Assembly: GCA_042219045.1 (NCBI GenBank)
Contig: JBDGQO010000027.1
Coordinates: 1-15,838, forward strand
Origin: Candidatus Bipolaricaulia bacterium
GTDB lineage: Bacteria; Bipolaricaulota; Bipolaricaulia; RBG-16-55-9
Direction of reading: 5' to 3'
Length of the DNA: 15,838 nt
A model generated the notes under the pieces. The model ran no database searches. It worked only from the letters and a program-made list of their open reading frames with translations, and was not told the origin of the DNA. The position numbers were made by a program, and so were the translations under genes. Positions 3,276 to 13,981 of this stretch are shown here, one piece after another (position 1 is the stretch's first letter; every line of letters starts with the position of its first letter).

Positions 3276-4736
3276 CTAGCTCGCGGCCGTCTCCGCCACC
3301 GGCGCCTCGACCTCGATCAGCCGCTCCGCGGCCTGATGGCCCTGCTTGACGCAGTCGGAGAGCCCGATGCCCCGATACCCGGATCCGGCGATCTCCAGGC
3401 CGGGGAAGGGCTCGAGCGCGGCGTCGATGCGGGCCAGCTTGTCGAGATGGCCCACCTCGTACTGGGGCATCGCCCCCTCCCAGCGATGGACGCGCGTCAG
3501 CACGGGCTCGCCCGAGGCGCCGACCAGGTCGCCCATCTCGCGCGCGGCCGCGTCCACCAGCTCGGCGTCGCTTGCGTTGAGGACGTTCTCTGCGGAGCCG
3601 GACCGTCCGAAGAAGCAGCGGAACAGCGCGTAGCCCTCGGGGGCTCGCCCCTCCCACTTGGACGAACTCCAGGTGCAGGCGGTGATCTCGCGCGGCTCGC
3701 TGCGCGGCACGAGGAAGCCGGTGGCGTCGAGCGGATGCTCGACGTTGTGGCGCGGATAGGCGAGCGTCGCGATCGCGGTGCTCGCGTAGGGGATCTCCGT
3801 CAAGCGATCCGACGCCTCCGGACTGACCGAGTCGAGCAGCTCGGCGGTGACGAACGCCGGCGTCGTGAACAGCACGCGATCGGCGTCGATCGTCGCCTCG
3901 TCCAGGTGGAGCCGATACGCGGCGTCGCCGATCCGCTCGAACGCCCGCACGGGCTGGCCTTGGAGGATCCGTGCGTCGGTGAGCTGGGCCGCCAACGCGT
4001 CGATCCAGCTGTGCAGCCCCGAGCGCAGCGAGGCGAAGACGGACCTGGGCTTGGAGGGGCTGTCCTTGCTCGAGGAGGCCGACTGGCGACGCTTGCGGGC
4101 CGCCACGGCCCCGCGCACCAGGCCGCCGTCCTTGCGCTCCAGCGAGGCGAACTGCGGGAACGTCGCGTTGAGGCTCAGTCGGTCCGCATTGGAGGCGTAC
4201 ACGCCCGCCAGCAGGGGCTCGGCGAGGCGTTCCATCGGCTCGCGCCCCAGCCGGCGCCCGACGAACGAGCCGAGCGACTCGTCGCTGTCGTCCTTTTTGG
4301 GGGAAATGAACGGCTCCAGCCCCATGCGCAGCTTGCCCCGGACGGAGAAGAGGTTGCTGCCGAGAAACGCCATCATGGATTGGGGCGTCGGGATGAAGCC
4401 CATCGCCCCGCGCGGCAGCACGTGGAGTCGGCCGTTGTAGAGGATGTAGGCCGTCTTGCCGGACGGCGGATGGATGAGCTCCTCGCCGAGGCCGAGCTCG
4501 CGGCAGAACTCCATGCCTTGGGGCTTCATCGTCGCCATGGAGTCGGGGCCGCCCTCGACGAGGAAGCCGCTGTCGGTCCGTTCGGTGACGATCTTGCCGC
4601 CGAGGCGCTCGGCCGCCTCGATGACGGTGATCTCCATCGGCTCGCCCCGCTCGCGGGCCAGGGCTTGCAGTCGGTACGCCGCCGACAGGCTCGTCATGCC
4701 GCCGCCGACGATCGCAATGCGTGTCGCGTCGCTCAT
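3276..4736 (-). CDS. hemY: HemY-type FAD-dependent coproporphyrinogen/protoporphyrinogen oxidase (486 aa)
   Basis: RIAIVGGGMTSLSAA, RLGGKI, VEGGPDS, EPLLAGVYA, TGFLVP, ACTWSSSKW, AMPQYEVGH, GIGLSDCVKQG. ATG 4736 overlaps the hemE stop (ATGA). Confidence 0.92.
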   Translation of the reverse strand: MSDATRIAIVGGGMTSLSAAYRLQALARERGEPMEITVIEAAERLGGKIVTERTDSGFLVEGGPDSMATMKPQGMEFCRELGLGEELIHPPSGKTAYILYNGRLHVLPRGAMGFIPTPQSMMAFLGSNLFSVRGKLRMGLEPFISPKKDDSDESLGSFVGRRLGREPMERLAEPLLAGVYASNADRLSLNATFPQFASLERKDGGLVRGAVAARKRRQSASSSKDSPSKPRSVFASLRSGLHSWIDALAAQLTDARILQGQPVRAFERIGDAAYRLHLDEATIDADRVLFTTPAFVTAELLDSVSPEASDRLTEIPYASTAIATLAYPRHNVEHPLDATGFLVPRSEPREITACTWSSSKWEGRAPEGYALFRCFFGRSGSAENVLNASDAELVDAAAREMGDLVGASGEPVLTRVHRWEGAMPQYEVGHLDKLARIDAALEPFPGLEIAGSGYRGIGLSDCVKQGHQAAERLIEVEAPVAETAAS

Positions 4737-5791
4737 GAGGAGACTCCTTCGGCTTGGAGGAACGAGGGACTCGCCTCGTGGATCAGGTCCACGAGGTCGC
4801 TCAGCTGCTCGGGATCCGTGTCCGGCACGATCCCGTGGCCGAGGTTGAAGATGTGGCCCGGACCCGGCCCGGCACGCCGGAGCACATCCAGCGCCCGCTC
4901 GCGCAGCAGCTCCCACGGCGCCAGCACGGTGATCGGGTCGAGGTTGCCCTGCACGGGCACGTCGTGGCCGAGCCGCTCGCGCGCGTGGTCGAGGTAGACG
5001 TGCCAGTCGACGCCCACCACGTCGCCGCCGGCATCGCGCATGCGCTCCAACAGGGCCGCGGAGCCGACGCCGAAGTGGATGACGGGCACGTTGAGGTCGA
5101 GCGAGTCGAACAGTTGCTCCATGTGGGGCTTGACGAACTCGTCGTAATCCGTCGGGCCGAGCGCGCCGACCCAGCTGTCGAACACCTGCACGGCCTGGGC
5201 GCCCGCGTCCACTTGGGCTTGGAGATAGCGCCCGACGGCGTCGGCCAGTCGGCCACAGAGGTCGTGCCAGGCCTCGGGCTCCTGATACATGAACGCCTTG
5301 ACCTTGGCGTAGTTCTTCGACGGGCCGCCCTCGACGATGTAGCTCGACAGCGTAAACGGCGCGCCGACGAAGCCGATCAGCGGCACGGTCAGCTCCTCGC
5401 GCAGCATGCGGATGGCGTCCAGGACGTAATCCAGGTCGGCCTCGGGCTGGTCCAGAGGCCGAACGCGGGCCACGTCGCCCGGGGCGCGCACGGGCCGGTC
5501 GACGACGGGGCCCACGCCCTTGCGCAGCTCCACGTCGATGCCCATGGGCCGCAGCGGAATGATGATATCGGAGAACAGAATCGCCGCGTCGACCGCCATC
5601 TGGCGAATGGGCAGCAGGGTCACCTCGGCCGTCAGCTCCGGCGTCGTCGCCAGCGTCATCATGTCGTAGCGCTCGCGCAGCTGGCGGTATTCCGCCTGGT
5701 AGCGGCCCGCCTGGCGCATGAACCAGACGGGGGTGCGATCGACGGGCTCGCCGCGGCAGGCGGTCAGGAAGCGATCGTTGGCTCCGCTCAT
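4733..5791 (-). CDS. hemE: Uroporphyrinogen decarboxylase (352 aa)
   Basis: [59 protein letters not shown] 5791 overlaps the hemL stop (ATGA). Confidence 0.95.
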
Positions 5792-7080
5792 CCCAGCTCC
5801 TTCAGGGCTTCGTAGGCCGCGTCGACGGTCGTCTGGATGTCCTCCTCGCTGTGGGCCAGCGACGGGAACCAGGCCTCGTAGGTCGAGGGGGCGATGTAGA
5901 CGCCACGGTTGAGCAGGCCCCAGAAGAACCGGGCGAACCGCTCGGTGTCGACGTTCTGGGCGTCCGCGTAGTTCCGCACGGGCCGCTCGCTGATGAACGG
6001 CGTCAGCATCGGGCCGACGCGCTGGACGACCAGGGGCACGCCCGCGTCCTGGGCGGCTTCGCTCAGCCCGTCCGCGAGCTGTTGGGAGCGCGCTTCGAGC
6101 TCCTCGTGGACCCACGGCTCGCTCAGCTTGCGCAGCGTGGCCAACCCCGCGGCCATGGCGAGCGGGTTCCCCGACAGCGTCCCGGCCTGATACACGGGCC
6201 CCGTCGGCGCGACGTGCTCCATGACGTCGAGGCGGCCGCCGTAGGCGCCCACGGGCAGGCCGCCGCCGATGACCTTGCCGAAGCACGTCAGATCGGGCGT
6301 GACGCCGACGCGCTCCTGCGCGCCGCCGTACGCCACGCGGAACCCGGTCATGACCTCGTCGAAGACGAGCAGCGCGCCGTGCGCCTGCGTGATCTCGCGC
6401 AGCTCTTCCAGAAACCCGGGATCCGGGGGCACGAGGCCCATGTTGCCCGCGACGGGCTCGATCACCACGGCGGCGATCTCGTCCGGGAACTGCTCAAACA
6501 ACGCCCGGACGGACCCGGCGTCGTTGAACGAGGCCGTCAGCGTGTCCGCGACCGCGGCTTGGGGCACCCCGGCGGTTGCGGGGAGCCCGTGCGTGGCGAC
6601 CCCCGAGCCGGCCTCGGCCAAGAGCGCGTCCACGTGGCCGTGATAGCACCCGGCAAATTTGACGATCTTGTCTCGATTGGTGAACCCTCGGGCCAATCGG
6701 ACCGCGCTCATCGCCGCCTCCGTGCCGGAGTTGACGAACCGGACCATCTCGACGGACGGAAGCGCCTCGATCACGGTCTGGGCGAGCTCGCTCTCCATCG
6801 CGGTCGGCGTCCCGAAGCTCGTCCCCTTGGCCGCGGCGTCCTGGACGGCCTGGACGACGTCCGGATGGGCGTGGCCCAAAATCATGGGGCCGAACGAGCC
6901 GACGTAGTCGAGGTACGCGTTGCCGTCGACGTCCCAGATCCGCGCGCCCTCGGCGGAATCGACGAACACGGGCGCGCCGCCCACGCCGGCGAACGCGCGC
7001 GCGGGGCTGTCGACGCCGCCGGGGATCAGGCTCTGCGCCTCGTCGTAGTGCGCCTCGGAGCGGGTGTAGACGCGGGTCAC
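5788..7080 (-). CDS. hemL: Glutamate-1-semialdehyde 2,1-aminomutase (430 aa)
   Basis: [51 protein letters not shown] (PLP lysine), [13 protein letters not shown] 7080 with GAGGTG RBS overlaps the radical SAM stop (GTGA). Confidence 0.95.
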
Positions 7081-8246
7081 GTCACCACCTCGCCGCCGCG
7101 GGGCTGGTAGGGACAGAGCGGGTCGGCCGCGAGCGGGTCGCCCGTCGCGGCGAACGCCCGCGCGCGCGAGCCGCCGCAGATATAGCGATACTCGCACTCG
7201 CCGCAGTCGCCCCCGAACCGATCCGGGTCGCGCAGGTCGTTGAACAGCTGGCTGTCGCGATAGATCTCGACGGGGCTCGTCTGGCGCACGTTGCCGGCCG
7301 AATAGGGCAGGAAGCCGGTCGGATAGACGTCGCCCGTGTGGGAGACGAACATGATCCCGTTGCCGTCGCGTATGCCGAAGCCGTGGCCCACGGAGGTCCG
7401 CTTGATCTCCTCGGGGCTGAGCCCCTCCAGCCGCATGCGCTGATACGCCACGCGGCGGTAGCTCATCGCCTCGGTCGTCTTAATGGCAAATGGCGACTCC
7501 TGGGATTTGTCATAGACCCAGTGGAACAGCCGCTCCGCTTGGGCGTCCGTGATGGGCTTGAGGACCTTGCCGCGGCCGACCTGTACGAGGAAGAACAGGC
7601 TCCAGCGCGAGACGTCCAGCTCGCGCATCAGCTCGTGGATGTTGCCCAGATCGGGCAACGTGTCGGCAGTGACGAGCGTGTTCACCTGCAAGGGGAACCC
7701 CATCCCGCGGATCTCGCGCGCGGCCCAGACGGTCTGATCGAACGTGCCCTCGACGCCGCGGAAGTCGTCGTGCCACTCCGCGTCCGAGCCGTCGATGCTG
7801 AGCGAGAAGCCGTGGACGCCCAAATCCCGCAGCTTGCGCAGCTTTTCGCGCGTGAGTCGATTGGTGGCGCTCGGCGCAATCGAGAGCGGAAAGCCGCGGT
7901 CAAGCGCGGCCTCCACCAATTGGAATAGATCCTGGCGGTGCATGACGTCGCCGCCGGTCATCACCAGGTGCGGCGGCGGGTCGCCGAACGTTTTCAACTC
8001 GTCGAGCAGCGCCAGGCCCTCGTCGGTGCTGAGTTGGTACGGATGCGGCTCGCGCTGCGCTTCGGCGCGGCAGTGCTGACAGGCCAGGTCGCACGCGAGC
8101 GTCGTCTCCCAGTAGATGAGGATGGGGCGCTCGTCGAAGACGCGCGTCCCGTCCATGCCGGGATGGAACGCCGTCGTTGGCCGAGGGCCGGCTCTGTGGA
8201 TCTGTGCTTGCGACTCGGTCTCCGGAGTCATTTCTGAGGTGCGCAT
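7077..8246 (-). CDS. Radical SAM/SPASM protein, AhbD/NirJ-like (resembles the TIGR04053 family); candidate coproheme decarboxylase
   Basis: [19 protein letters not shown] (Cx3Cx2C), [68 protein letters not shown] before ATG 8246. Embedded in the hem operon. Confidence 0.8.
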
Positions 8247-8250
8247 CGTG

Positions 8251-9246
8251 TCAGCTCCTTTCGCGCAGCGCCCGGGCGGCGTCCTTGGCGAAGTACGTCA
8301 AGATCATGTCGGATCCGGCTCGTCGCATCGCGGTCAACGCCTCCAGCACGGCCGCCGTCTCGTCGATCCAGCCGCGCTCGGCGGTCGCCTTGATCATCGA
8401 ATACTCGCCGCTCACGTTGTAGGCAGCGACCGGCACATTGGAGACCTCGCTGGCTGCGTGGATGACGTCGAGATACGCCAGCGCCGGCTTGACCATGACC
8501 ATGTCGGCCCCTTCGTCGAGGTCCAGCTCGATCTCGCGCACGGCCTCGCGGACGTTGGGCGGGTCCATCTGATAGCCGCGCCGGTCGCCGGCCGCGGGCG
8601 CGGACTCCGCCGCGTCGCGGAACGGGCCGTAGAACGCCGAGGCGTACTTGGCGGCGTAGCTCATGATGGCCGCGTTGGCCAAGCCAGTGCCGTCAAGCGC
8701 CTCGCGGATCGCTTCGACTTGGTGGTCCATCATGGCGCTCGGCGCGAGGACGTCGGCGCCCGCGTCGGCATGCGAGACGGCCATGCGGGCCAATAGCTCC
8801 AGGGACGCGTCGTTGTCGATTTCTCCATCCTCGCGGAGCACCCCGCAATGGCCGTGCGGCGTGTAGCCGCAGACGCAGACGTCGGTCATGACGACGAGCT
8901 CGGGGGCTTTCGCCTTCAGCTCGCGGATGGCCCGCTGGACGATGCCGCCGTCGTCGTAGGCCGACGAGGCCTCGTCGTCCTTGCGATCGGGCAACCCGAA
9001 GAGCAGGATCGCCGGAATTCCCAGATCGAGCAGCTCGTCCGCGACGCCGGCCAACTCGTCGATCGACAGGCGCGACTGGCCCGGCATCGACGGGATCGGC
9101 TCGCCCTCGCCCTCCTGGACGAAGACGGGATAGATCAAGTCGGACGGCGACAGTTCGGTCTCGCGCGCCAGGCGGCGCAGGCCGGGCATGCGGCGCAGGC
9201 GCCGCGGCCGCGTCTCAAACGCGCGCCTGGTCCTGATCTCGTGCAC
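8251..9246 (-). CDS. hemB: Porphobilinogen synthase (ALA dehydratase), Zn-binding type
   Basis: [68 protein letters not shown] start behind a GGAGGTG RBS. 32-nt overlap with the hemD 3' end. Confidence 0.95.
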
Positions 9247-10015
9247 TCGGGGTCACCTCCCGCAGGATCGCATCGGTCAAACCGTCAATCGTGTGCACCT
9301 CGGCCACGATGTCGACATCGACGCCCAGCTCCCGAACGACCTCGGCCGTGATCGGGCCGATGCACGCCACAGTCACGCCATCCAACCGCGAGCGCTCGGC
9401 GCCGAGCGCCTCGATGAACGCCCGCGCCGTCGAGCCGCTCGTGAACGTGGCGACGTCGATGCCGCCGTCGAATAACTCGTCAATATCGTCCGCGCCCAGC
9501 GAGCGATGCTCGGTCCGGTAGGCCGTGACCTCCTCGACCCGAGCGCCACGCTCGGCCAGCTGGTGCCGCAGGTCCTCGCGGGCGATGTCGGCCCGCAGCA
9601 ACAGAAACGACGCCCCCGCAACGTCGGCAAGCTCGTCGGAAATGGCGTCGGCAATAAATCGCGACGGGACGAAATCCGGCTCCACGCTGTGAGATCGCAG
9701 CGCTCGGGCGGTGGACGGCCCAATGACGGCGATCTGCGCGTTCGTCAGCTCCGCGCTCGAGCCCCCGAGCGCCTCCAGGCGCTCCATCGTGAACCGCACG
9801 CCGGCCGGACTCGTGAAGACGATCCAGTCGTAGCTCGACAGGCGCCCGAGCGCCCCGTCCATCTCGGCCCAGTCGGCCGGCGGCACCAGCGCGATCGTCG
9901 GCCGGATCACGGGCTCGGCGCCCAGGGACGCCAACTTCCGCGCAAAAACCTCGGCCCGCTCACGCGGGCGGGTCACCAGAACGCGGCGTCCCTCCAGAGG
10001 GGGTTCCCGAGTCAT
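9215..10015 (-). CDS. hemD: Uroporphyrinogen III synthase (266 aa)
   Basis: [52 protein letters not shown] 10015 overlaps the hemA-hemC stop (ATGA). Confidence 0.92.
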
Positions 10016-12357
10016 TGGAGGGCCTCCTTCAGGATCTCGTCCGCGCCGGCGTTCCAGAGCGTCGTGCCGAGGTGCCAGCCGATCTGGGGCGCGTGGTCCG
10101 GATGGCCTTCGATCGCGTCGCGCAGCACCGTCTGGCCGTCGAGGCTGGCGACCAGCCCGGTCACCACCAGCTTCCCGTCCGCGATGCGGCCGTACGCCGC
10201 AATCGGCATGCGGCAGCCGCCGCCCAGTGCGGCCAGACACGACCGCTCGGCCACGACCGCCGCGTGCGTCGTGGGATCGTCGATGGCGCCGAGGATCTCC
10301 TGCACGGCCTCGTCGTCCGCGCGCGCCTCCAGGGCCAGCGCGCCCTGGGCGGGCGCGGGCAGCACCTGCGTCGGGTCGAGGAACTGGCTGACAACGTCCA
10401 GCCGATCGAGGCGTGCCAGGCCGGCCGCCGCCAGCACGATCGCGTCGACGACGCCGTCTGTCAGCTTCTGGAGCCGGGTGTCGACGTTGCCCTGGATGAA
10501 CGTCGTCGCCAAGTCGGGACGTCGGGCCAACAGCTGGGCCGCCCGGCGCGGGCTCCCCGTCCCGACCGTCGCGCCGGAGGGCAAGCCGTCCAGCGTCGTG
10601 CCGTCGCGGGTGATGAGCACGTCGCGCGGGTCGGCCCGCTCGGGCACCGCCACGATGCGCAGATCCGCCGGCGTCTCCGTCGGGAGGTCCTTGTGGCTGT
10701 GGACGGCCACGTCGATCTCGCCGTCGTCGAGCGCCCGTTGGAGCTCCGTCACGAACGCGCCCACGTCGCCGACCTGGCCCCGATCGCCGCGGGTCTTGAC
10801 GATCTCGGTCTTGGGGGCGAGGCCCGGGTGGCGCGCCCGCAACGCGGCAATGACGTGGTTCGTCTGCGTCCGGGCAAGCGTGCTGCCGCGCGTGCCGAGC
10901 ACGAGCTCGCGCTTGGGGCCGCCGTCGGAGCGCGCACGAGAGAGACCATCGGGGGATGCGTCCGTCTGGGACGGGCCGTCGACGTCGTTCAGTTCGGCCA
11001 TCTCCGCCTGCAGCGACGGGTCGAAGTGCGGGTGGTCGACGTCGTCCAGCTCGAAGAGCTCCCGGGCGACCGTGAACGGCTCGCACGTCTCGGAGCGCTC
11101 CGCCAGCGCCTTCAGCTGGACCGTCGGCGTGTGGAGCCACTTGTTCATCATGCGGTGCGTGAGCGCCTGCAGCGTCTCCTCCTGGTCCTCGCTGAGCGGG
11201 CCGAGCTTGGAACGGGCCCACGCGAGCTCGTGCTGGCGAATCTCCTCGGCTTGATGGCGCAGCGACTTGATGAGCGGGATCGCCCGACGCTGGCGCAACC
11301 AGCTCATGAACGCCTCGGTCTCCTCCTCGACGATCCGCTCGGCGTCGGGAACGGCCGAGGCGCGCTTCTGCTGGCTGGCGTCCTTGACGGCCTTCAGGTC
11401 ATCCAGGTCGTGGATGTGAGCGTTCGGCACGTCGCGGATCTGGGGATCCAGCGTGCGCGGCACGGCCAGGTCGACGAGCAGGAGCGGGCGGCCGCGGCGC
11501 TCGTTCATAACCGCCTCGACTTGCTCCGAGGTGACGACGTAGTCCTTGCCCGGCGCGGTGGCGCTGATCAGGACGTCGGTGGTGGAGAGAACGTCCGGCA
11601 GCTCGTCCGCGCCCGTGGCTTGGCCGCCGAACTCCGCGGCCAGCTCCGTCGCTCGCTCGCGGGAGCGACTGGCGATCCGAACGTCGCGCATGCCGTTTTT
11701 GTGGAGCTGGCGGGCGACGAGCTCGCCCATCTCGCCGGTGCCCAACAGCATCGCCGAGGCCTGGCCGAAGTCGGGATGGATCTGCGCGGCGAGATCGACG
11801 GCCACGGAGCCGAGCGACGCCGGATGGCGCCCCAGGTCGGTCTCGGTGCGGACGCGCTTGCCCACCTGGATGGCCCGCCGGAAGAACGTGTCGAACAGGG
11901 GCCCGAGCGCGTCGGCGTCCCGAGACCGGTCGTAGGCGTCGCGGATCTGGCCCAGGATCTGGGGCTCCCCCAAAACTTGGGACTCCAAGCCGGCGGCCGT
12001 GGCAAACAGATGCCGCACCGCCTCCCGATTCTCGTAGACGTTCAGGTGGCGCCGCAGTTGGGCCGGGACCGACCCCTGTCGGCCCGCGAGAAAGCGCGCC
12101 AGCGGTTCGGCACAGCCGCCCACCGCGTAGAGCCCGGTCCGGTTGCACGTGGAGAGGATCGCGGCTTCGCCGAATTGGGCGCGCGAACAGCGATCGCAGT
12201 CCTCGTCGCATCCCAGGTGCAGAATGGGGATCGTGGCGAGGCCGTGCCCCTGGAGGAGCTGGCCGAGCGTATCGGGGATGTCATGGGCGTCAAGGCTCAG
12301 CTGTTCGCGCAGCTTCAGCGGCGCGGCCTTGTGGTCGATCTCCACGCTCACGATCAT
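10012..12357 (-). CDS. hemA-hemC: Fused glutamyl-tRNA reductase (HemA, about 11047-12357) and hydroxymethylbilane synthase (HemC, about 10012-10914); 781 aa
   Basis: HemA: HKAAPLKLRE, LSTCNRT, GLESQVLGEPQILGQ, GTGEMG, DLAVPR, DLDDL, NKWLHTPT. HemC: LGTRGSTLARTQ, DVAVHSHKDLP, VGTGSPRR, GNVDTRL, PAPAQGALALE, GGCRMPI. One uninterrupted frame; AAGGAG RBS before ATG 12357. Confidence 0.92.
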   Translation of the reverse strand: MIVSVEIDHKAAPLKLREQLSLDAHDIPDTLGQLLQGHGLATIPILHLGCDEDCDRCSRAQFGEAAILSTCNRTGLYAVGGCAEPLARFLAGRQGSVPAQLRRHLNVYENREAVRHLFATAAGLESQVLGEPQILGQIRDAYDRSRDADALGPLFDTFFRRAIQVGKRVRTETDLGRHPASLGSVAVDLAAQIHPDFGQASAMLLGTGEMGELVARQLHKNGMRDVRIASRSRERATELAAEFGGQATGADELPDVLSTTDVLISATAPGKDYVVTSEQVEAVMNERRGRPLLLVDLAVPRTLDPQIRDVPNAHIHDLDDLKAVKDASQQKRASAVPDAERIVEEETEAFMSWLRQRRAIPLIKSLRHQAEEIRQHELAWARSKLGPLSEDQEETLQALTHRMMNKWLHTPTVQLKALAERSETCEPFTVARELFELDDVDHPHFDPSLQAEMAELNDVDGPSQTDASPDGLSRARSDGGPKRELVLGTRGSTLARTQTNHVIAALRARHPGLAPKTEIVKTRGDRGQVGDVGAFVTELQRALDDGEIDVAVHSHKDLPTETPADLRIVAVPERADPRDVLITRDGTTLDGLPSGATVGTGSPRRAAQLLARRPDLATTFIQGNVDTRLQKLTDGVVDAIVLAAAGLARLDRLDVVSQFLDPTQVLPAPAQGALALEARADDEAVQEILGAIDDPTTHAAVVAERSCLAALGGGCRMPIAAYGRIADGKLVVTGLVASLDGQTVLRDAIEGHPDHAPQIGWHLGTTLWNAGADEILKEALQ

Positions 12358-12379
12358 CCGGTCTCGCTCCTTTCCGCGG

Positions 12380-12436
12380 TTCGACTGTCCGGTCGGATTT
12401 CGACCCAAAAATTGAATTCCGACCTTACGGTCTAAA
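12380..12436. promoter_or_regulatory. Two pseudo-palindromic GAC-N6-GTC operator sites in the hemA-hemC leader (putative TetR operators)
   Basis: TTCGACTGTCCGGTCGGA (12380-12397) and TTCCGACCTTACGGTCTA (12417-12434). Related sites at 13167-13185 and 13334-13351. Confidence 0.6.
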
Positions 12437-12497
12437 ATAGGCCCGGCGGCCGACCGTCACAATGACGAAGGTCATCTTAACATTTGATCCGGCTCAG
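12434..12497 (-). promoter_or_regulatory. Putative sigma70 promoter of the hem operon with tandem FNR/CRP-like boxes
   Basis: Minus strand TTGTGA (12462-12457), 17 nt, TATTTT (12439-12434). Palindrome ATGAC-GAAG-GTCAT at 12462-12475 (about -41.5) and TTGAT-CCGG-CTCAG at 12484-12497 (22 bp further upstream). Confidence 0.6.
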
Positions 12498-12549
12498 GCC
12501 CATGCGGTGGGCCAATAACGGGATTCGGGCGAGTCCGGTCGGACAACGC

Positions 12550-12577
12550 ACACGGCGGAGTCAGGGCTCCGCCGTGT
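12550..12577 (-). terminator. 11-bp perfect hairpin after the cytochrome gene (terminator or processing/stability element)
   Basis: ACACGGCGGAG-TCAGGG-CTCCGCCGTGT, 26 nt past the cytochrome stop. Only a weak U-rich tail (GCGUUGU) on the minus strand. Confidence 0.55.
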
Positions 12578-12603
12578 CGACCATTGGCAGCTTGGGGTTG
12601 GGC

Positions 12604-13155
12604 TCAGTTCGCGTGGCAGGACGTGCAGAACTCGGCCTTCTGGCCTTCGGTGTCCTGAGCGCTCGGGTGTTGGGCGACGACGCCGAGGTTGTGGCAGCGG
12701 GCACAGAAGCTGGCCGGTTCGTCCCCGTCGAGCGGCACCTCGCCCGCGGTGTGGCAGGTGGCGCAGAACTGGCCGCCTTGTTGGCCCTGAGTGACGTTGT
12801 GGGTTGCGGTCTTGCCGTTGTGTTGTAGCCGATGGCACTCCGCGCAGTCACTGGAGGTCCAATCCATGTCGATCGTGTGCGGCGGGTCCGGTGCGGGCTT
12901 CACCACGGGTTGATTCGCGGCAAACCGGACGTGCAAGTTGACGTGACAGCTGTTGCAGAACGAGGTCTGGTCCTGAGGCGGCTGCTCCATGGACTGGTGG
13001 CATTGCCAACAGGTTGCGGCATCGCGATTCGGGTCCACCGGCACGGGGTGGTTATCCGGCACGGGCGGCGGGGATTGCGCAATCGCGACGATGGTCAAAC
13101 CGGCGATCGCGAGCAGGGCCATGGTTGCGAGGACGAGCTTCTTGCGTTTCACCAT
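12604..13155 (-). CDS. Exported six-heme c-type cytochrome (183 aa)
   Basis: Six CXXCH motifs (CWQCH, CNSCH, CAECH, CATCH, CARCH, CTSCH). Sec-type signal MVKRKKLVLATMALLAIAGLTIVAIA-Q. AGGAGG RBS 5 nt before ATG 13155. Confidence 0.9.
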   Translation of the reverse strand: MVKRKKLVLATMALLAIAGLTIVAIAQSPPPVPDNHPVPVDPNRDAATCWQCHQSMEQPPQDQTSFCNSCHVNLHVRFAANQPVVKPAPDPPHTIDMDWTSSDCAECHRLQHNGKTATHNVTQGQQGGQFCATCHTAGEVPLDGDEPASFCARCHNLGVVAQHPSAQDTEGQKAEFCTSCHAN

Positions 13156-13166
13156 CGTCACCTCCT

Positions 13167-13248
13167 TTCCGAGGATTGCGGTCTATTCTAGACAGGCACG
13201 TCCGTTATCGACATGATGTCCATCAGATCCCGGATTGAGATGGATCAT
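13167..13248 (-). promoter_or_regulatory. Putative cytochrome promoter with tandem FNR/CRP-like boxes and an operator
   Basis: Minus strand TGTCGA (13213-13208), 17 nt, TAGAAT (13190-13185), then AGACCGCAATCCTCGGAA. Boxes ATGAT-GTCC-ATCAG (13213-13226, about -41.5) and TTGAG-ATGG-ATCAT (13235-13248). Confidence 0.6.
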
Positions 13249-13293
13249 GCCGCGCGAAGGGAGGGGGCATCGCAATCTGGATAATCCGATGCG

Positions 13294-13351
13294 TTGATCT
13301 CGATCATGGACGAGGCCGATCGCCGCCCGTATACTGACCGGCCAGTCGGAA
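13294..13351 (+). promoter_or_regulatory. Putative tetR promoter with an FNR-like box and a likely autoregulatory operator
   Basis: TTGAT-CTCG-ATCAT (13294-13307, one mismatch to the FNR consensus, about -41.5). TGGACG (13307-13312), 17 nt, TATACT (13330-13335), directly followed by GACCGGCCAGTCGGAA (13336-13351). Confidence 0.65.
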
Positions 13352-13372
13352 CCCGAATCGGCGGTCGAGACC

Positions 13373-13981
13373 ATGGGAGTCTCCGAACGACGCGAACAAG
13401 AGCGCCACGAGCGCACCCAGCGTATCCTGGAGGCCGCGCTGCGGGTCTTCGCCCGCGAGGGCCTGCGCCCGGCGACGATCGAAGCCATTGCGGGCGAGGC
13501 CCAGCTCGGCAAGGGGACGATCTACTACTACTTCTCCTCCAAGGAAGCGCTTCTGGAGGAACTGGTCGCCAACCTCTCCGACGAATACTTCCGCGGGCTC
13601 CTGGCCGGCGCGTCCGGGCATGCGACGCCCCTGGCCATCGCACAGGGCATCGTCGAGCGGCTCATCGAGCACTATCGCGGGAAACCCGAGCTGTTCCGCG
13701 TCATCCACATGGTGTTGGGCGAGCCCGAGCCCCGTCCGCAGAAGGCGCTGGAGGCGTTTGTCGACTCCCACCTGAGCTGGATCGAGAACCTCAAAGACGA
13801 GACGGCCGAGGTGCTCCAGGCTCACGGCGTTCCCGAGGACGCCTTCCTCTATCTCGTCAGCACGTTCAGCCACGGCGTGCTCTTCGAGGCCGTGTCGGGG
13901 CGCGACCCCGATCGGCTGCTGAATGAAACCCGTGTGGCGCTGGAGGCGTTTCTGGCGTCTTTTTCGGGAACAACGTCGTAG
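13373..13981 (+). CDS. TetR/AcrR family transcriptional regulator (202 aa)
   Basis: N-terminal HTH: ILEAALRVFAREG..ATIEAIAGEAQLGKGTIYYYFSSKEAL. Divergent from the cytochrome/hem genes. Confidence 0.92.
   Translation: MGVSERREQERHERTQRILEAALRVFAREGLRPATIEAIAGEAQLGKGTIYYYFSSKEALLEELVANLSDEYFRGLLAGASGHATPLAIAQGIVERLIEHYRGKPELFRVIHMVLGEPEPRPQKALEAFVDSHLSWIENLKDETAEVLQAHGVPEDAFLYLVSTFSHGVLFEAVSGRDPDRLLNETRVALEAFLASFSGTTS

Follow-up and report, generated by a model that had tools for sequence, protein, structure and literature searches.

The DNA analysed here is a 15,838-nucleotide stretch of a Candidatus Bipolaricaulia bacterium, to which we refer as the window. It corresponds to the entire contig C26 of a 2.43-Mb metagenome-assembled genome (MAG) that is 89% complete, called G000 below, with G001 as its sister genome. 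The plus strand carries the gene for a TetR-family regulator (tetR), and the minus strand a single long haem operon, composed of hemA-hemC, hemD, hemB, a radical-SAM/SPASM gene, hemL, hemE and the gene for a HemY-like flavin oxidase. The hemA of this operon is named hemA1, as a second haem cluster is found on contig C40 (locus L058 3281-6471), with hemA2 (coding for a 437-aa glutamyl-tRNA reductase, GluTR), hemQ/chdC and hemH. The operons of hemA1 and hemA2 jointly encode hemA, hemL, hemB, hemC, hemD, hemE, the HemY-like oxidase, hemH and hemQ. In our view, the TetR-family repressor very probably shuts haem synthesis by acting on tandem 18-bp operators at hemA1, at hemA2 and at its own promoter, a proposal drawn from sequence comparison. 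The tetR gene is divergent from a cytochrome gene and has a convergent cyclase/TPR gene downstream, which leaves it solitary in the window. The two genes of main concern are:

13373..13981, plus strand: tetR, 202 aa (P0001), Pfam TetR_N with an E-value of 3.2e-17
10012..12357, minus strand: hemA-hemC fused frame, 782 aa, the first gene of the operon (Pfam)

The regulator and its predicted operators

The TetR_N match spans residues 18-64 with 62.5 bits, against a Pfam cutoff of 24, and identifies the TetR-family helix-turn-helix (HTH). The AlphaFold model (pLDDT 91.6) has 10 helices in the all-helical TetR fold, and a Foldseek search with it retrieved 411 PDB chains with E <= 0.001, of which the best listed were all TetR-family regulators, with TM values of ~0.65-0.76; the closest solved folds among the matches listed are generic or acyl-CoA-binding TetRs, including those of the FadR/FasR type. 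Orthologues are present in 28 of 41 related genomes, with 38-93% identity, and all belong to one order. Their invariant residues are F73, F108, F129, H133, G168, G176 and R177, with W136 and H167 near-invariant. The initial annotation had remarked that the protein has no Cys and has six His in the ligand domain, and this was borne out, with a total of seven His (12, 83, 100, 112, 133, 151 and 167). Two of the ligand-domain His are conserved, H133 without exception and H167 in all but one of 24 orthologues (23); in the predicted model they are located on the helices formed by residues 123-150 and 155-174, respectively.

The palindrome GAC-N6-GTC was initially noticed before tetR (13336-13347), before hemA (12421-12432 and 12383-12394) and before the cytochrome gene (13191-13202), and it does occur at all four positions, although the last is not supported as an operator (see below). 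The bare pattern is found 16 times in the window against 7.9 +/- 2.9 expected, a count reached by 2 of 200 shuffles, and 12 of the 16 occurrences are coding. The 11-mer GTCCGGTCGGA, reported at the outset as a repeated half-site, recurs at 12533-12543 as stated, but its count is near chance, since two occurrences compare with 1.06 expected (with at most one mismatch) and 55 of 200 shuffles reach two. This second copy was also rejected as an operator, having no left half-site and being unconserved in G001. As the bare pattern is weakly enriched and the 11-mer is near chance, the window by itself could not decide the matter.

The comparison was made with 26 larger loci from 25 genomes, using the DNA preceding tetR at 24 loci outside the genus and in G000 and G001. 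All 24 loci from other genera present at least one GAC-N6-GTC with TTC/GAA flanks, placed directly behind a tacaat-like -10 and ahead of the ATG of tetR. The pattern thus forms the centre of a longer, 18-bp palindrome, TTCGAC-N6-GTCGAA. The initial annotation had likened the site to a NemR-type box, TAGACC-N4-GGTCTA; the consensus obtained from the orthologues is the one just given. These loci contain 42 sites of this kind, mostly in tandem pairs 1 nt apart (a 19-bp period), and the orthologue operators begin at the final bases of the -10 and stop a few bases short of the ATG. The palindrome is the autoregulatory operator expected of a TetR protein, with binding predicted. From 38 unique sites, all of other genera, we built a symmetric matrix, in which the GAC/GTC core is fixed by the site-picking rule. 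The sites scored with this matrix in the window, and the promoters that they overlap or follow, are:

13307..13335, plus strand: tetR promoter, TGGACG (-35), 17 nt, TATACT (-10); consensus scan, 9/12 matches
13333..13350, no strand: tetR operator copy 1, ACTGAC-CGGCCA-GTCGGA, 12.5 bits, around rank 50 genome-wide
13352..13369, no strand: candidate tetR operator copy 2, degenerate, CCCGAA-TCGGCG-GTCGAG, in the 19-bp register and 3 nt short of the ATG
12434..12474, minus strand: putative hemA1 promoter read from the sequence, box TGACCTTCGTCAT (12474..12462), -35 TTGTGA (12462..12457), 17 nt, -10 TATTTT (12439..12434)
12418..12435, no strand: hemA1 operator copy 1, TTAGAC-CGTAAG-GTCGGA (minus), 15.8 bits, rank 14 genome-wide
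12399..12416, no strand: hemA1 operator copy 2, a weak match of 10.5 bits, in the 19-bp register
12380..12397, no strand: hemA1 operator copy 3, TTCGAC-TGTCCG-GTCGGA, 20.2 bits, rank 2 genome-wide

The -10 of tetR, TATACT, is placed like the tacaat -10 found in its orthologues, and operator copy 1, which spans the predicted start site, is homologous in position to their tandem operators. Copy 2 falls below 5 bits in the matrix scan and is for this reason given as a candidate. The hemA1 promoter is likewise putative, because its hexamers match at 8/12 positions, below the scan threshold. The hemA1 operators begin within the TATTTT -10 and end 5 nt ahead of the GGAAAGGAG ribosome-binding site: copy 1 overlaps the -10 and the predicted start site, and copy 3 is found 23-40 nt before the hemA ATG. 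This triple layout is shared by G001, G004 and G020. The hemA1 and hemA2 leaders of G000 differ from those of G001 mainly in the N6 spacers, with most half-sites retained; in hemA1 copy 1 the half-sites are kept in G001 and the N6 is altered.

When the matrix was run over the 2.43-Mb genome, rank 1 went to a perfect palindrome of 25.3 bits at C40:41434, accompanied 1 nt away by a second copy of 16.0 bits. This tandem operator ends ~24 nt upstream of hemA2, the head of the hemA2-hemQ-hemH cluster. Rank 2 is hemA1 operator copy 3, and the extended 18-mer exceeds chance expectation by far. The top 40 matches in G000 include no further credible promoter site besides those at hemA, the others lying within or at the ends of coding frames, or beside two TetR paralogues on contig C45. 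On this contig, two identical palindromes, TTTGACTGACTGGTCAGT(CAAT), are found at positions 10249 and 12215, ~2 kb apart and one of them beside a TetR paralogue (29% identity), and they probably represent a separate TetR system with a related half-site. The hemA2 cluster is divergent from an alpha/beta-hydrolase gene, and its operator could in principle serve either direction.

Co-occurrence of operator and regulator

Among the 41 genomes, hemA is present in 13, which are the same 13 that carry hemB. These were divided according to the presence of TetR:

Genomes with TetR (G000, G001, G004, G011, G014, G020, G024, G026; n=8): 11 hemA, 10 of them preceded within ~210 nt by a site scoring at least 19.8 bits
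Genomes without TetR (G005, G006, G019, G035, G036): 5 hemA, none with a site of at least 14 bits, the best being 13.6 bits at -392

Thus, the operator is found at 10 of the 11 hemA genes of genomes with TetR and at none of the 5 in genomes without it; co-conservation of the operator was one of the checks proposed in the initial annotation. The operator, its positions and its co-occurrence with TetR come directly out of the computation. Synteny of tetR with hem genes, to which the initial annotation had also looked, is not general, as physical linkage is seen in 5 of the 26 genomes examined (G000, G001, G004, G020 and G024), in three different arrangements. Positive hemA genes with tetR on another contig are found in G011 and G026, and as hemA2 of G000 and G001. 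Since the operator linkage holds across separate contigs, the regulatory link between tetR and hemA does not depend on adjacency.

Two of the genomes present peculiar arrangements. In G011 (contig C40, L147 / L155), two hemA paralogues are found ~1 kb apart on the same strand, with tandem operators of 24.0 + 18.9 and 26.1 + 17.2 bits. In G005, a different TetR gene (L149 2760-3347 (-)), with 31% identity in the HTH only, has a stop codon that overlaps the hemA start by 4 nt, which indicates that a second, unrelated TetR-hemA pairing exists.

The initial claim that the TetR protein directly represses the haem biosynthesis operon is strongly supported by this comparative evidence, because the orthologue operator, the sites of ranks 1 and 2 at the hemA genes and the co-occurrence with TetR all point to it. 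We consider it most likely that this is a real and conserved TetR operator system, with haem biosynthesis as its predicted main target in G000, and we infer that TetR binds and represses at these operators. Two or three operator copies with a 19-bp period, extending from the -10 to just short of the start codon, would allow bound dimers to cover the transcription start and the beginning of the transcribed region, and thereby to prevent initiation or promoter clearance. Repression of both hemA1 and hemA2 would stop haem synthesis at its committed step, and TetR would also bind its own promoter, more weakly. Four points weigh against this interpretation. The tetR operator itself is weak in the genus, with the 12.5 bits of copy 1; the GAC/GTC core of the matrix was set by the selection of the training sites; G014 has a TetR and, beside a PAPS-reductase-like gene, a hemA-like gene without a site; and the relatives are non-independent samples.

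That the repeats are not TetR operators at all, being instead the sites of another factor, hairpins of a 5' leader RNA or chance occurrences, is most improbable, even if the sites are palindromic and lie within the transcribed leader. Every tetR orthologue examined has the motif at its promoter, the hemA promoters are without it exactly where TetR is absent, and genome-wide ranks 1 and 2 are not chance. In addition, for 57 sites with 342 half-site position pairs we counted 276 consensus pairs, 57 one-sided changes and 4 compensatory ones, a count for which the GAC/GTC core had been required when picking the tetR sites; this excess of one-sided over compensatory changes argues for protein-DNA recognition rather than an RNA stem. 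A search of Rfam with 12300-13450 gave no family at E-values up to 1.

The predicted regulon is small. The perfect palindrome occurs at 47 sites in the 41 genomes, against 13 for a reversed-pattern control, with, as we read their positions, 19 of the 47 at tetR, 4 at hemA and the others in coding-like frames or at the 5' end of tmRNA. The tmRNA matches (GGGGGTGACTGGATTCGACGGGGATGTCGAA..., in G007 and G002, L184 / L185 around 1501) were discarded as a chance match and a predictable false positive. With one mismatch allowed, four of five genomes have no more sites than the control, their counts being equal, the fifth being G011 with 45 against 6, and no inference is drawn from these numbers. Six further regulon candidates in the relatives were also rejected, five because they are coding and the sixth because it is situated where two convergent genes end.

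A second type of element accompanies the operators. In the window, three sites account for 4 matches to the pattern TGAY-N4-RTCAT, where 0.20 would be expected, and no shuffle out of 200 reaches 4. The boxes are fused to the -35 of hemA1 (12462-12474), of the cytochrome gene (13213-13225) and of tetR (13295-13307), and they resemble the CRP/FNR box, TTGAT-N4-ATCAA. Similar CRP/FNR-like boxes precede tetR in many orthologues and hemA in G004, G020 and G006, the latter having the box at hemA yet no TetR, and G000 encodes ~14 Crp/Fnr-type HTH proteins. Judging from these patterns, two layers of control, an activator box and TetR operators, appear to act on hemA1 and tetR, and the cytochrome gene appears to have the box only. 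The copies first proposed as degenerate operators at the cytochrome promoter (13167-13185 and 13191-13202) did not stand, as they score below 5 bits and that at 13191-13202 is broken in G001. The cytochrome gene was dropped as a TetR target, since no site of at least 5 bits besides the tetR-proximal operators is found between the divergent cytochrome and tetR genes in G000, G001, G004, G002 and G007.

The ancestral tetR module and the effector

In the orthologous loci elsewhere, tetR is followed by the gene for a conserved 320-aa protein, which we call x, and then by that for an RND protein of ~850 aa. The RND protein is assigned to MMPL by Pfam in 11 of 11 cases tested, and is HAE3/HpnN-like by NCBIfam, under the cutoff. 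Protein x has no match in Pfam or NCBIfam, and presents a hydrophobic helix at both its N-terminus and its C-terminus. Its model (pLDDT 83) resembles Treponema pallidum TP0453, with a Foldseek E-value of 1.4e-7 and a VIA Z-score of 13.6 (rmsd 3.9 over 221 residues; next entry Z 8.9), and an Atlas search gave TP0453 (PF20740) as the closest named family. TP0453 has been described as a lipid-interacting lipoprotein. The x protein is present in 26 of the 41 genomes and adjoins tetR wherever the contig extends far enough. Searches for x in G000 and G001 gave nothing, and the MMPL proteins of G000 are paralogues with ~25% identity, none of them the orthologue, from which it seems that the genus of G000 and G001 lost x and the transporter but kept tetR. 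Since tetR was kept, haem synthesis would be its remaining target; the comparison of tetR between G000 and G001 indicates purifying selection (dN/dS 0.106, dS 0.36), and selection on the gene after the transporter loss fits a retained role at hemA. Distant homologues of the TetR (24-31% identity, in MAGs of Calditrichota, Cytophagia and Clostridia) precede MMPL genes, with none near hem genes, and the control of hemA consequently looks like an innovation of one order.

The family PF01578, of CcsA/CcmC-type cytochrome c maturation proteins, is found in 33 of the 41 genomes and in 27 of the 28 with TetR. Among the PF01578-positive genomes, x is present in 19 of the 20 without hemB versus 6 of the 13 with hemB, a difference confounded by shared ancestry. 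Most relatives have cytochrome c maturation genes without hemA or hemB, and are apparent haem auxotrophs making c-type cytochromes, with the proviso that the MAGs are incomplete. A role of RND proteins in haem uptake has a disputed precedent in mycobacterial MmpL11/MmpL3, according to excerpts of a published article (PMC7058343).

Several known systems offer points of comparison, which are taken from excerpts of the reviews cited. HrtR of Lactococcus lactis, FhtR of Enterococcus faecalis and HatR of Clostridioides difficile are likewise TetR-family homodimeric repressors acting on a palindromic operator, in their case at their own transporter operon. HrtR ligates haem with two His, His72 and His149 (PMC11442138), and two ligand-domain His, H133 and H167, are conserved in the present family. 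The three proteins control ABC or MFS efflux, are released by haem and are not reported in the excerpts to act at haem synthesis, whereas the targets here are the hemA operons; also, the transporter linked to the orthologues is an RND protein (HAE3/MMPL) together with the TP0453-like x, unlike the ABC or MFS pumps of HrtR-type systems. The haem-related TetRs that appear in the excerpts of PMC11442138 and PMC12670364 all control efflux. In the window no transporter follows tetR, where an HrtR-type system would have its adjacent efflux pump. HrtR is not in the best 60 of 168 PDB sequence matches nor among the Foldseek matches listed, which reveal no likeness to it beyond the family fold. The tetR-MMPL/RND cassettes are a further point of comparison: the orthologues form such cassettes, in the order tetR-x-HAE3/MMPL and with the operator at the promoter, but in G000 neither x nor the transporter was found, and it is the hemA operons that carry the strong operators.

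Regarding regulation of haem synthesis itself, the excerpted 2024 review (PMC11442138) names Irr, HbrL and two-component systems as regulators in bacteria, and describes a complex of HbrL with haem that represses hem gene transcription, in end-product feedback. HbrL (LysR family, Rhodobacter capsulatus) and Irr (Fur family) would be alike to the present system if haem were the ligand, but they belong to unrelated families with other DNA sites. A TetR repressor of haem synthesis or of hemA was not found in searches of the full-text literature, which do not cover subscription-only papers, nor did these return anything relevant on Bipolaricaulota and haem. Dedicated transcriptional regulators of bacterial haem synthesis are few, and the present analysis predicts, for an uncultured phylum, a defined operator and a small regulon formed by the tetR operon and the hemA operons.

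The effector is a separate question from the action on DNA. The suggestion in the initial annotation that a tetrapyrrole ligand would require co-repressor logic is sound, because the same operator lies downstream of the -10 both at hemA and at tetR-x-RND, and a tetrapyrrole inducer would render haem synthesis self-amplifying. TetR-family repressors with ligand-promoted DNA binding exist in DesT and FabR, a possible co-repressor precedent, whose ligands are acyl-CoA or acyl-ACP and whose targets are genes of fatty-acid desaturation. With a tetrapyrrole co-repressor, synthesis would be under feedback and so would, elsewhere, a module for haem acquisition, and we regard haem or another tetrapyrrole acting as co-repressor in end-product feedback as the most coherent candidate, which we hold tentatively. 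In favour of a tetrapyrrole are the conservation of H133 and H167, given that HrtR uses two His, and the way in which the tetR-x-RND module follows the use of haem in the PF01578 and x counts above. Speaking against a haem effector, hemA and hemB are absent from 20 of the 28 genomes with TetR, the fold neighbours listed are of generic or acyl-CoA type, the protein conserved next to TetR is of RND exporter type and comes with the TP0453-like x, and the distant homologues mentioned above are not near hem genes. Equally tentative, and as worthy of consideration, is the proposal that the mechanism on DNA is the same but the effector, working as an ordinary inducer, is either an acyl-CoA-like lipid or the hydrophobic substrate of the ancestral RND/TP0453-like export module, with hemA simply recruited into an envelope/lipid regulon. 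The constant partnership with x and an HAE3/MMPL transporter, also ahead of which the distant TetR homologues are found, the resemblance of x to TP0453 (Z 13.6), the presence of FadR/FasR-type acyl-CoA sensors among the closest solved folds listed and the fact that most genomes with TetR make no haem are in line with such an effector. It provides no reason, however, why hemA, apparently alone next to the tetR operon, joined the regulon in every haem-making TetR lineage, and leaves the retention of tetR under selection after the loss of the transporter unexplained.

An arrangement like that of HrtR, in which haem releases TetR and induces x and an RND efflux pump, the sites at hemA being a side effect or unused, is in our opinion very unlikely. 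Known haem-sensing TetRs, namely HrtR, FhtR and HatR, act in this manner, often in haem auxotrophs, as given in the excerpts of PMC11442138 and PMC12670364, and most relatives of G000 appear to be auxotrophic. But strong operators precede both hemA operons, and by this logic haem would drive the synthesis of more haem; moreover, in G000 the hemA operators outscore that of tetR and persist where the pump is gone. Returning to the co-repressor, its most extended version, in which TetR is co-repressed by haem or a porphyrin and coordinates the hemA operons with a hitherto unrecognised haem acquisition or trafficking by x, as a TP0453-like periplasmic carrier, and the HAE3-type RND protein in one order of Bipolaricaulota, is unlikely as a whole. 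If true, the x/RND module would explain where relatives equipped for cytochrome c maturation, yet lacking both hemA and hemB, get their haem. Should the ligand be a tetrapyrrole, the protein would represent a TetR that provides end-product feedback through co-repressor logic, and the TP0453-like/RND module would be a candidate for haem trafficking in bacteria with c-type cytochromes of their own but no haem synthesis.

Other features of the haem operon

The remaining genes on the minus strand of the window are:

3276..10009, minus strand: rest of the haem operon, hemD, hemB, radical-SAM/SPASM, hemL, hemE and the HemY-like oxidase; gene starts approximate (Pfam, NCBIfam)
12604..13161, minus strand: multihaem cytochrome c, 185 aa, between tetR and hemA (Cytochrome_C7/c3 matches)

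A hairpin is found at 12550-12577, past the stop codon of the cytochrome gene. The hemA-hemC frame has no internal stop and contains GlutR_N, Shikimate_DH and GlutR_dimer, followed by Porphobil_deam and Porphobil_deamC. The hemA matches in G001, G004, G020 and G026 lie in open frames of 735-829 aa, which suggests that the fusion is conserved and not an assembly error. In the second haem cluster, an Arg-rich frame (P0006) between hemA2 and hemH was dropped as spurious, the hemQ frame being preferred. The radical-SAM/SPASM gene (7077-8246, minus strand) matches TIGR04053 with 464.8 bits and is AhbD-like with 306 bits, under the cutoff of the latter model; it lies inside the haem operon and may encode an oxygen-independent coproheme decarboxylase beside HemQ.

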